A DNA stretch of 64,000 bases from Promethearchaeota archaeon (GCA_048938105.1 JBHLMN010000024.1:1-64000); one strand, 5' to 3'. Shown: positions 5,344-60,068, numbered from the stretch's first letter. Program-made: numbers and translations. Notes: generated from the letters alone by a model not told the origin.

Positions 5344-5564
5344 TGCTGGGAGGGGGCTTTTCGTTAGGTAAATTGGAATTTACCTAAATTCGAACCCCCG
5401 ACTTCGGGATGTCTCGTCTGAAAGCGCGAATTATGCCCTTATAAAGTTGTGAGAGGAATTCTCAGATTATGAGTCCCGCGCTATCGGCATTTTGACTATA
5501 GACATTATAATTATACCAGGCTTAGCCACAATAATAAGATTATTATCGTTTAAGCCACCCCAGC
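5344..5564 (-). tRNA. Elongator tRNA-Met(CAT) with four introns: 14/15 (5522-5550), 21/22 (5484-5511), 37/38 (5411-5467), 59/60 (5358-5388)
   Basis: Splicing at BHB-predicted sites gives a 76-nt cloverleaf GCTGGGG TG GCTT AGCCTGGTATA TAGC G CGGGA CTCATAA TCCCG AAGTC GGGGG TTCGAAG CCCCC TCCCAGC A; G1-C72 argues against initiator. Confidence 0.88.
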
Positions 5565-5763
5565 ACATATGATTAGGGGTTATTGCTTTTCGCAAAGTAG
5601 TATCCAGCAATTTTCTTTGCTTTGGCTCTAGGATTTTAAAGTTATGCAGGTACTAGATGTGTGACATCTTTAAGAGAGGATTAATTTAAAAAATTGAGAA
5701 AGAAGGGGCAGACTTAGACGCCTATCGAGCAATAAGATTAAAAAGGTCTTCATTTAGTATGTA

Positions 5764-10046: not shown

Positions 10047-10242
10047 TGCGGGGGATGGGATTTTCGCCTGCTAAGTTCAAAACTAAGCATTGTTTCGAAC
10101 CCACGTACATCTATATGACTGGATTGCTTATCGTGAAGCGATCTTAAGTCCAGCGCCTTTGGACGGCGCTATATATTATGATATGCTAAGCTATCATCTA
10201 GCCCAATAATTGCCGCCTTTGACCTGGCTTGGCTACCCCCGC
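10047..10242 (-). tRNA. tRNA-Leu(TAA) with three introns: D-loop (10159-10218, 60 nt), 37/38 (10125-10142, 18 nt), 59/60 (10061-10093, 33 nt)
   Basis: 85-nt long-variable-arm cloverleaf after splicing; BHB helices CTTA/TAAG and TTCG/CGAA are perfect. Confidence 0.88.
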
Positions 10243-26447: not shown

Positions 26448-27149
26448 TTGTCTGAAGTACAAAATTTACTAGAAAAAGCAATACAACAAAGAAGAAAAGT
26501 CCTTTCGGTTCAAGAATCCAAAAAAATATTATTACAAGAAGGTTTTCCAATAAATCCAACAGGTTTCGGAACCAACCTAGATGAGGTTCTGGCTGAAGCC
26601 CAAAAGATTGGATTTCCTGTTGTACTTAAAGTTAGTTCTCAAGAAATTATTCATAAGTCAGATATTGGAGGGGTTGTCACTGGAATCAGAAATGATCGTG
26701 ATCTTAAAGAGCAATATGAAATAATGCAACATAACATAGCCCAAAAAGCTGTTAATGCAAATATAGAAGGATATATTGTAGAAAAGATGGAATCTGGAAT
26801 AGAACTCTTAGTAGGTTCAACTCTTGATCCCATGTTCGGACCAATCTTGGCATTTGGTTTAGGTGGGATATATGTTGAGGTTCTAAAGGATGTTGTTTTC
26901 CGTTTGATCCCCATTAACCGAGAAGATGCAACAGAAATGCTTTCTGAAATAAAAGCAGCTAAAATACTAGATGGAATCCGTGGACAACCTCCTGTAAACA
27001 AAAAATCTTTGGTCGATTTAATGATGAAGACATCTGAGTTTATTGATCACCATACTGAGATCGAAGAGTTAGATTTAAATCCAGTCTTTGCTACAAAAGA
27101 GGGAGTATCGGTTGTAGATGCCCGAATTATTCTAAAGGTTGATGAGTAG
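26448..27149 (+). CDS. Acyl-CoA synthetase (NDP-forming) ATP-grasp (beta) subunit
   Basis: GFPVVLK, HKSDIGGV, FGPILAFGLGG, ELDLNP, VDARI. Confidence 0.92.
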   Translation: MSEVQNLLEKAIQQRRKVLSVQESKKILLQEGFPINPTGFGTNLDEVLAEAQKIGFPVVLKVSSQEIIHKSDIGGVVTGIRNDRDLKEQYEIMQHNIAQKAVNANIEGYIVEKMESGIELLVGSTLDPMFGPILAFGLGGIYVEVLKDVVFRLIPINREDATEMLSEIKAAKILDGIRGQPPVNKKSLVDLMMKTSEFIDHHTEIEELDLNPVFATKEGVSVVDARIILKVDE

Positions 27150-58919: not shown

Positions 58920-60068
58920 ATGAGAAATAAAAGGATTCAAGACAGCTCTATATCTATTCTCGGCTTAGGAAATGGAGGACATGCTTTTGCAGCTTATGCT
59001 AAATCAAAAGGCTATAAAGTTAAGATTTGGAATCGATCTACTTCTGTTCTTGAAGCGATAAAAGAGAATAAAGGTATTACATCCTCAGGATTATTGGAGG
59101 GACATTTTGACATTGATGTAGTATCACATTCAATTTATGAAGTGATTAGAGAAAGTAAGATAATAATAGTGGTAACGACCGCTAATGCGCATAAAGAAAT
59201 AGCAACAAGAATTGCTCCTTATTTGGATGATAATCAAATCGTTGTTTTAAATCCAGGGCGAACTGGAGGTGCAATTGAAGTTAGAAATGCCATCCGAAAC
59301 AATAATGGCCCTTTTAAACCACAAATAGTAGAAGCTCAATCTCTTCTATTTGTGTCTCGATGCTCAAAACCCAGCCAAGTAACAATTTCAGGGATAAAAA
59401 GAAGAGTACCAGTTTCAGCATTTCCATCCTGTGATAATAATCAAGTCATACCTTTCTTAAAAGACCTTAATAGTGCTTTTTGGGAAACGGAGTCTGTGTT
59501 GAACACTTCTTTTGATAATATTGGTGCGATATTTCACCCAACTCCTTTATTATTGAATGTTGCTAGATGTGAGGATCCAAAAGTTAATTATCGACATTAT
59601 ATTGACGGTGTTTCCCCCTCTGTTGCTTCTTTCTTAGAAAAAATGGACAATGAACGAGTAGCTATAGCAGATGCTTACGGAGTACAAGCAATTGCTTTAA
59701 AAAAATGGTTAAATACAGTCTATGGAAGCAATGGAAGTACTCTATATGAAACCATTCATAATACGAAAGAATATCAGAACGTTATGGCACCATCAACATT
59801 AAATGTCCGTTATATATTTGAAGATATTCCAACAGGTTTAATTCCGTTATCTAGCTTTGGAGATGAAGCTGAAGTTCCGACTCCTTTCATTGATGCTATT
59901 ATTAATTTGGCTAATTGTATGTTCAATAAGGATTATAGAGCTCTTGGTAGAACTGTTGAGTCATTAGAGCTCAATAAAATTCCATCCTACCTATTAAAAG
60001 AGTATATGACTCTTGGTGATGAATTCTATATCGAAATAATGAAACGGGAGAGTGTATTAGAGGAATGA
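58920..60068 (+). CDS. NAD(P)-dependent octopine/nopaline (opine) dehydrogenase family protein
   Basis: GLGNGG, LNPGRTGGA, NIGAIFHP, RYIFEDIPTGL. Confidence 0.88.
   Translation: MRNKRIQDSSISILGLGNGGHAFAAYAKSKGYKVKIWNRSTSVLEAIKENKGITSSGLLEGHFDIDVVSHSIYEVIRESKIIIVVTTANAHKEIATRIAPYLDDNQIVVLNPGRTGGAIEVRNAIRNNNGPFKPQIVEAQSLLFVSRCSKPSQVTISGIKRRVPVSAFPSCDNNQVIPFLKDLNSAFWETESVLNTSFDNIGAIFHPTPLLLNVARCEDPKVNYRHYIDGVSPSVASFLEKMDNERVAIADAYGVQAIALKKWLNTVYGSNGSTLYETIHNTKEYQNVMAPSTLNVRYIFEDIPTGLIPLSSFGDEAEVPTPFIDAIINLANCMFNKDYRALGRTVESLELNKIPSYLLKEYMTLGDEFYIEIMKRESVLEE

Follow-up and report, generated by a model that had tools for sequence, protein, structure and literature searches.

The locus at 5344-5564 of the window (the whole stretch of 64,000 nucleotides from a Promethearchaeota archaeon that was analyzed) is very probably a functional, single-copy gene of a Hodarchaeales archaeon for an elongator tRNA with the anticodon CAU, most likely elongator tRNA-Met, whose four introns would be spliced by the endonuclease EndA. 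An earlier sequence-only reading had placed a tRNA gene with the anticodon CAT at exactly these positions and had given it four introns with strict or relaxed bulge-helix-bulge (BHB) motifs. Both points were confirmed, the second by a BHB-aware search and by the orthologues of the gene. That reading gave no strand; the helix it offered as an example matches the reverse complement, so the gene lies on the minus strand. Following its recipe on the plus strand yielded no tRNA, and this orientation was rejected.

To locate the introns, we used our own cloverleaf search, in which jumps were allowed only at BHB-like sites and a cloverleaf was required. The best solution at the locus has four introns and a mature tRNA of 74 nt (Table 1). 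Introns account for 147 of the 221 nt (66.5%), as in the earlier estimate of two-thirds, and CCA is not encoded in the gene. The 74-nt product is a canonical class I cloverleaf with stems of 7/4/5/5 bp and a 7-nt anticodon loop; the tertiary bases U8, A14, G18G19, A21, U33 and A37 are in place, as are G53-C61, U54U55C56 and A58. The sole non-standard pair is U13.U22, which is invariant in all 16 species. Compared with the tRNA of an orthologue with a single intron, the 74-nt cloverleaf differs only at base 57 (G here, A there), at one T-stem pair and at one acceptor-stem pair.

Table 1. Coordinates of the tRNA(CAU) gene, its parts and related features (window positions unless a contig is named)
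Feature	Position	Strand	Description
tRNA(CAU) gene, whole	5344-5564	minus	221-nt precursor body, G1 (5564) to discriminator A73 (5344)
Exon 1, 14 nt	5551-5564	minus	acceptor 5' strand, U8, G9, D-stem 5' strand, A14
Intron 1, 29 nt, Sprinzl 14/15	5522-5550 (precursor 15-43)	minus	HBh' type
Exon 2, 9-nt micro-exon	5513-5521	minus	D-loop G15 to U22
Intron 2, 30 nt, 22/23 by BHB geometry	5483-5512 (precursor 53-82)	minus	
Exon 3, 15 nt	5468-5482	minus	A23 to A37, anticodon CAU included
Intron 3, 57 nt, canonical 37/38	5411-5467 (precursor 98-154)	minus	
Exon 4, 22 nt	5389-5410	minus	A38 to A59
Intron 4, 31 nt, 59/60	5358-5388 (precursor 177-207)	minus	strict hBHBh'
Exon 5, 14 nt	5344-5357	minus	G60, T-stem 3' strand, acceptor 3' strand, A73
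Candidate archaeal TATA box UUUAAAAU	5633-5640	minus	~70-76 nt upstream of G1
Initiator tRNA-Met	genome G000, contig 11, ~97217-97311	plus	A1-U72, GGG/CCC, 19-nt intron at 37/38

The second intron was the point at which the sequence-only reading had to be corrected. Its proposed lengths of 29, 57 and 31 nt and its sites 14/15, 37/38 and 59/60 stand, but the second insert is 30 nt rather than 28 nt, and BHB geometry places it at 22/23 instead of 21/22. By sequence alone, the sites 20/21 and 21/22 are also possible and give the same product. Species without this intron read GCCUGGUAUAGCG, so the insert comprises 30 nt, the D-loop is an ordinary one of 9 nt and the tRNA has 74 nt; the product of 76 nt proposed before carries the 2-nt error of intron 2. 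The 28-nt version was considered as a candidate: its product, a 76-nt cloverleaf whose D-loop has 11 nt, is accepted by ARAGORN and called tRNA-Met(cat), but the orthologues lacking the intron all read GGUAUAGC, and the version was rejected. The positions claimed earlier, taken literally on the minus strand, produce the anticodon CGA because sequential and Sprinzl numbering had been mixed; with consistent numbering they give a tRNA(CAT) that ARAGORN accepts.

The prediction that standard finders would miss the gene held. On the window, ARAGORN reported three other tRNAs and Rfam RF00005 five tRNAs, and neither reported the locus at 5344-5564, RF00005 not even at E values up to 10. At the same limit, no Rfam family matched in the gene or its introns.

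The exon junctions could be fixed independently of the splicing motifs, because sister species carry only one, two or three of the introns. The 221-nt gene was compared by BLAST with 40 relatives and the orthologous loci were cut out, giving orthologues in 15 of the 20 same-genus genomes; in its own genome (G000) the query matched once only. All four introns are present in G000, G007, G014, G009, G012, G011 and G015 and in the assemblies DZ3S.51 and YT5_056, whose SRP54 is identical to that of G014 and G012. The four-intron layout is found in at least eight species assemblies, two closed chromosomes among them. Introns 1, 3 and 4 are carried by G020 and G010, introns 2 and 3 by G005, introns 1 and 3 by G002, G004 and G013, and intron 3 alone by G006. 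G016 and G001 also have introns 2 and 3, with a different 30-nt sequence at the intron 2 site. Intron 1 is therefore missing from G005, G016, G001 and G006, and intron 2 from G020, G010, G002, G004, G013 and G006, all of which read GCCUGGUAUAGCG without interruption. Intron 4 is absent in seven species, and intron 3 occurs in every orthologue recovered, those of 16 of 16 genus species and of the class's other families alike. Where an intron is lacking, the exons abut exactly as predicted. The unrelated-looking intron 2 of G016 and G001 (loci L010 and L011) includes a stretch almost identical to the flanking exon (GCACCUGGU) and represents either a replacement or an independent insertion.

Each of the four introns can be drawn as a BHB motif with its flanking exon bases; only intron 4 forms a strict one, and introns 1-3 are relaxed. 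Intron 4 combines a central helix UUCG/CGAA of 4/4 bp and bulges of AA|U and AA|G with an 11-bp intron stem and, as its outer helix, the 5-bp T-stem. Intron 3 is of a near-canonical type, with the 5-bp anticodon stem as its outer helix and an intron stem (UCUGA/UCAGA) of 5-7 bp; in its central helix, CUCA/CGAG, three pairs form and an A.C mismatch adjoins the bulge, whereas five orthologues have 4/4 bp. The central helix of intron 1 (GGCU/GGCU) has 4 bp, including two G.U pairs, and 3/4 bp in orthologues; the intron stem is 9 bp long and the outer exon helix has 0 bp, which makes the motif HBh'. Intron 2 has the weakest motif of the four: its central helix, UGGU/GCCG, pairs 4/4 here and in 8 of the 10 carrier species, and 3/4 in G016 and G001, the intron stem has 3 bp (0-3 bp in orthologues) and the outer helix 1 bp. 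At least one of the flanking helices h and h' lies beside the central helix in all four introns.

Intron 1 ends in a copy of the final bases of exon 1 (GUGGCUUAA and GUGGCUAAG; window 5522-5564, minus strand), and GGCU in its central helix pairs with its own copy through G.U pairs. The copy of exon 1 at the end of the intron may be a footprint of how such introns insert.

The four motifs are nested and do not overlap, and can therefore form simultaneously. Enforcing all four BHBs gave an allowed fold of -59.6 kcal/mol. Without constraints, the minimum-energy fold reaches -72.8 kcal/mol and pairs introns 1-3 differently; one of its helices, between exon and intron, competes with the BHB of intron 3. 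Such predictions ignore the enzyme. The precursor folds with z = -4.9 relative to 200 shuffled sequences, none of which (0/200) folded as well.

These folds bear on the question of whether every insert is an EndA intron. Only some of them might be, with intron 2, and perhaps intron 1, removed in another way or after the other introns in an ordered splicing. The thin helices of both D-arm introns speak for this, intron 2 having only 0-3 bp in the adjacent intron stem and 1 bp in the outer helix and intron 1 having no outer helix, as does the minimum-energy fold, which absorbs the bulges of introns 1 and 2 into longer helices. The authors of tRNAscan-SE also state that in some cases one intron must leave before the next BHB can form (PMC8450103). 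Nevertheless, we consider this unlikely: across species, introns 1 and 2 retain a conserved central helix of 4 bp (or 3/4), the exact BHB register and 3-nt bulges, all four motifs are compatible within one fold, and alpha2beta2 enzymes accept HBh' motifs as substrates (PMC4090602).

Selection acts on both the exons and the BHB helices. Among the seven aligned four-intron species, 4 of the 74 exon columns vary, compared with 59%, 40%, 37% and 61% of the columns in introns 1 to 4, respectively. Over all 16 species, 8 of the 74 exon columns vary, several of them being both sides of one stem pair that change together; exon 1 is invariant in 16/16. The full precursor structure, consisting of the acceptor stem and the h, H and h' helices of the four motifs, was mapped onto the 16-species alignment. 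With this structure 90.6% of the cells pair, compared with 39-49% when the 3' partners were slid by 1-3 columns, and 17 pairs changed on both sides, compared with 4-9 in the slid controls. The observed values were reached by 0 of 500 shuffles for four of the five measures and by 2 of 500 for the measure of further pair types. Most of the compensatory changes lie in the intron stems, at 6 of 9 pairs in intron 1 and at 5 of 11 pairs in intron 4. Covariation also links exon base 57 to the intron base that it faces in the central helix of intron 4: the pair is A-U in four species, G-C in four and G.U in one.

A gene this fragmented, with three of its four BHB motifs relaxed, could also be a decaying pseudogene or relic that has retained its inserts while another gene supplies the function. 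This is highly improbable given that the exons are nearly invariant while the introns diverge with compensatory changes, that at least eight species keep the four-intron layout, and that a promoter-like box is conserved at a fixed distance upstream. A second copy was also not found in the genome, either by BLAST or by a scan for CAU tRNAs.

The CAU scan sought anticodon arms with CAU, with or without an intron at 37/38 and with a nearby T-arm, and required the anticodon stem to be fully paired; by these criteria a more disrupted copy could have escaped, and the genome is 99% complete with 7% estimated contamination. It recovered three credible CAU tRNAs, namely the contig-11 initiator, a gene with two introns at contig 18:122664-122789 and the four-intron gene, which is on this count single-copy and not a pseudogene. 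The sequence-only reading had advised a check for another elongator copy elsewhere in the genome; among these three CAU tRNAs, and with the single BLAST match of the 221-nt query, none was found. Archaea normally carry three CAU tRNAs, namely initiator Met, elongator Met and Ile2, and the anticodon alone cannot separate Met from Ile2 (PMC8450103). Since the three genes make up this normal set, the four-intron gene is single-copy and presumably essential whether it serves Met or Ile2.

That the gene encodes an elongator and not an initiator, as had been claimed, was upheld: initiator features (A1-U72 and three G-C pairs at 29-31/39-41) are lacking, and it has G1-C72 and A31-U39. In the contig-11 initiator, the 5' strand of the T-stem reads GGAUGG against CCUCC, which leaves one extra U or two mismatches.

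Comparison of the acceptor and anticodon stems suggests that the four-intron CAU tRNA is probably elongator Met, an assignment that applies identity rules known from bacteria, where C4-G69 and C29-G41 are identity elements for IleRS. The contig-18 CAU tRNA has two introns, the acceptor strand GGGCCUG and C4-G69, and it shares with tRNA-Ile(GAU) the first five acceptor pairs as well as C29-G41, G30-C40 and G31-C39. In the four-intron tRNA these pairs are G4-C69 and G29-C41. The sister-family orthologues of this tRNA have the 37/38 intron and begin with GCCGGGG or GCUGGGG, and such a start together with an old 37/38 intron is typical of archaeal elongator tRNA-Met.

The assignment could be the reverse, the four-intron gene being tRNA-Ile2 (CAU, with C34 modified to agmatidine to read AUA) and the GGGCC-type tRNA of contig 18 the elongator Met. 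At 35% G+C, the genome is expected to use AUA often and to require an Ile2 tRNA; the anticodon has no power to tell the two apart (PMC8450103), and comparing both candidates over their whole sequence with the remaining tRNAs of the genome did not distinguish them either. Against this, it is the contig-18 tRNA and not the four-intron one that resembles tRNA-Ile(GAU) in the acceptor and anticodon stems and has C4-G69, while the four-intron gene has G4-C69 and G29-C41, and its sister-family orthologues show the start and the old intron typical of elongator Met. We therefore regard the exchange of the two roles as rather unlikely, and refer to the four-intron gene below as probable elongator tRNA-Met.

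The orthologous elongator-type CAU tRNA in other families of the class and order (loci L090-L100 and L120) has A54 in the T-loop (AUCGAAA or AUCGAAG) instead of U54, an encoded CCA and G1-C72. A54 is a mark of eukaryotic initiator tRNA.

In the whole genome (a MAG of 5.85 Mb, 99% complete), Infernal with RF00005 found 28 tRNA genes above threshold and missed the four-intron gene; with only 28 found, many tRNA genes must be hidden. A BHB-aware census raised the number to ~36-38 credible tRNA genes. Those with two or three introns added by this finder include Tyr(GUA) at contig 52:124731-124888, Ser(CGA) at contig 18:108-244 and Leu(UAA) at 10047-10242 of the window. The candidates with three introns are Arg(GCG), Leu(UAA) and a 192-nt locus with three inserts on contig 18. 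The gene at 5344-5564 is the only four-intron gene among those recovered, a statement confined to the recovered genes because the finder is incomplete: of the 16 orthologues, the strict solver resolved the exons correctly in 10 and wrongly in 2, and found no solution for 4. Longer solutions with many apparent introns and products of low G+C were regarded as noise in the census.

Upstream of the gene lies an A/T box that is probably a TATA box, judging from its sequence and its conserved place. A box of this kind (UUUAAAAU, UUUUAAUC or UUUAUAAU) occurs at the same distance in 14 of the 14 orthologous loci checked, and the leader between box and gene varies. With the TATA box at this distance, RNase P would have to remove an unusually long leader of ~45 nt. 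No T-run directly follows the tRNA(CAU) gene. About 100 nt downstream, at ~5244-5106 on the minus strand, is a second interrupted tRNA, which starts with GCUCCGAUAGUGUAG and is followed by UUUUAUUUUUU (a T-rich run at 5105-5095). It probably has introns at 37/38 and 59/60; neither ARAGORN nor Rfam reported it, and the strict solver returned no solution for it. In several relatives the two tRNA genes are only 20-35 nt apart, which makes their co-transcription plausible. SRP54 is encoded just beyond the second tRNA, and this synteny is kept in the relatives. The closest relatives of SRP54 are from Candidatus Hodarchaeota / Heimdallarchaeota, including the closed chromosomes CP070695.1 and CP070665.1.

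The genome encodes RtcB and two full EndA genes of 188 and 218 aa, located on contig 38 at 59769-60023 and 26778-27038, each with an N-terminal and a catalytic domain. The 188-aa protein is closest to splicing-endonuclease chains of 180-186 residues (3p1z_B, 3ajv_B, 2cv8_A and 2zyz_B), which we take to be crenarchaeal heteromeric (alpha2beta2) EndA subunits. The 218-aa protein is closest to 4fz2_A, 5x89_A and NEQ261, that is, to NEQ261-like and fused forms. Judged by their sequences, the two diverged subunits would fit the alpha2beta2 type, and a review associates enzymes of this type with introns that are non-canonical, multiple or of the hBH/HBh' form (PMC4090602). A third, short EndA-like stretch, ~5 kb from the second EndA gene (G000 contig 38, 22018-22119, minus strand), aligns to no more of the profile than positions 3-36 and is interrupted by a TAA stop; it may be a paralogue in decay.

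We infer the splicing itself, the order of splicing, the promoter and the isotype, and propose the following pathway. Transcription would start from the conserved A/T box ~70 nt upstream, possibly including the following tRNA gene. Each insert would fold with its flanking exon bases into a bulge-helix-bulge, possibly all four at once, and a heteromeric (alpha2beta2-like) endonuclease of broad specificity would cut after the second base of each 3-nt bulge. The five exons, of 14, 9, 15, 22 and 14 nt, would then be ligated by RtcB, and maturation of the 74-nt tRNA would be completed by RNase P, a 3' nuclease and the CCA-adding enzyme.

Intron 3 is much better conserved than the other introns. Three elements within it, a UCUGAGA-N5-UCUCA hairpin, AAGGGC and CGCGC, are invariant in 16 of 16 species, and the orthologous tRNAs of other families in the class (L090-L100 and L120) also have AAGGGC in their 37/38 intron. 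In each orthologue, pairing is possible between CGCGC(U) and bases 23-28 of the exon, and the minimum-energy fold uses this helix; G005 has an exon change at position 28 that is accompanied by fitting changes in the anticodon stem and in this segment of intron 3. No Rfam match was obtained in intron 3 at E values up to 10, and no C box was seen in it. We know of no precedent among described cases for the AAGGGC and CGCGC elements inside a 37/38 intron. Tentatively, and with rather low confidence, the core of hairpin, AAGGGC and CGCGC(U) could be a conserved RNA element, either one that acts in cis to hold the exons of the D-arm and the anticodon arm in a splicing-competent or ordered fold, or a stable excised RNA.

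The distribution of the introns indicates their relative ages. In the sister family of the order, one orthologue (G021) has a single intron at 37/38 and another (G022) has two, at 37/38 and 59/60, both with an uninterrupted D-arm; other families of the class have one or two introns in the orthologue. Since the sister families have the 37/38 intron and an uninterrupted D-arm, intron 3 is old, and the D-arm introns arose within the genus or at its base. Introns 1, 2 and 4 occupy identical sites in both groups of an SRP54 tree, which is poorly resolved, has a very distant outgroup and is suited only to a rough grouping. Between the groups, the sequences of introns 1 and 2 can be aligned, and that of intron 4 can in G020 and less clearly in G010. 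Shared sites and sequences in both sub-groups point to a four-intron ancestor with losses or to an exchange of alleles. From these comparisons, a four-intron ancestor followed by several precise losses would be the simplest reading; allele exchange, or repeated gain at the same sites, may also have occurred.

The intron at 37/38 is widespread in archaeal elongator tRNA-Met, and intron 3 resembles this canonical intron in its site and in its use of the anticodon stem as the outer helix. Multi-intron tRNA genes of the Thermoproteales were reportedly described by Sugahara in 2007 and 2008 and by Marck and Grosjean in 2003. The present gene is like those of Pyrobaculum and Caldivirga in its BHB and relaxed HBh'/hBH motifs, its D-arm and 59/60 sites and its putative alpha2beta2 endonuclease (PMC4090602). 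Unlike them, it has four introns, compared with two or three (PMC8450103), and its host is an Asgard archaeon of 35% G+C and not a crenarchaeon. It also shares its isoacceptor and its several ectopic introns with an algal elongator tRNA-Met gene with three introns (Yoshihisa 2014, PMC4090602), which differs in being eukaryotic and in that its splice-site recognition is unknown.

The sequence-only reading regarded four introns as exceptional for archaea. This was true of the Thermoproteales-era literature, and the authors of tRNAscan-SE 2.0 still refer to "two or three introns" in archaeal multi-intron tRNAs (PMC8450103), but Asgard genes with four introns and with five inserts have since been catalogued. 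In three complete Asgard genomes, 92-95% of the tRNA genes are interrupted, and Supplementary Data 4 of the same study has columns for "intron 4" and a tRNA-Trp of Atabeyarchaeia-2 with four observed introns (Valentin-Alvarado et al. 2024, PMC11291895). A preprint gives, for three Asgard families, 2.2 intervening sequences per gene and up to five in one gene, and points out that inserts in the D-arm escape annotators (Goswami et al. 2026 preprint, October, 10.64898/2026.10.13.758758). The earlier reading allowed that the novelty would fall away if many four-intron tRNAs were already catalogued, and with the Atabeyarchaeia tRNA-Trp and the preprint's count of up to five this has partly come about.

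As far as those sources go, the gene is like the tRNA genes of Atabeyarchaeia, Freyrarchaeaceae and Jordiarchaeaceae in belonging to an Asgard archaeon, in its many non-canonical BHB-type introns and in its D-arm inserts that are missed by annotators. It differs from them in its host, which is a member of the Heimdallarchaeia, order Hodarchaeales. Compared with those Asgard genes, the junctions here are set by sister species that lack the introns, and covariation, including that of an exon-intron base pair, supports the BHB motifs.

In summary, the locus is a well-supported, extreme case of something already known rather than a phenomenon of a new kind, and the picture of archaeal tRNA introns is unchanged by it. 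What is new is modest: the Hodarchaeales lineage, the natural series of presence and absence, and the conserved core in the anticodon intron. The order Hodarchaeales is commonly placed among the closest archaeal relatives of eukaryotes, and the locus bears on how tRNA introns arise, persist and disappear there. It offers a natural experiment, in which one orthologous gene has one, two, three or four introns across sister species. The tRNA annotation of such genomes undercounts their genes, since a presumably essential CAU tRNA is invisible to Infernal.
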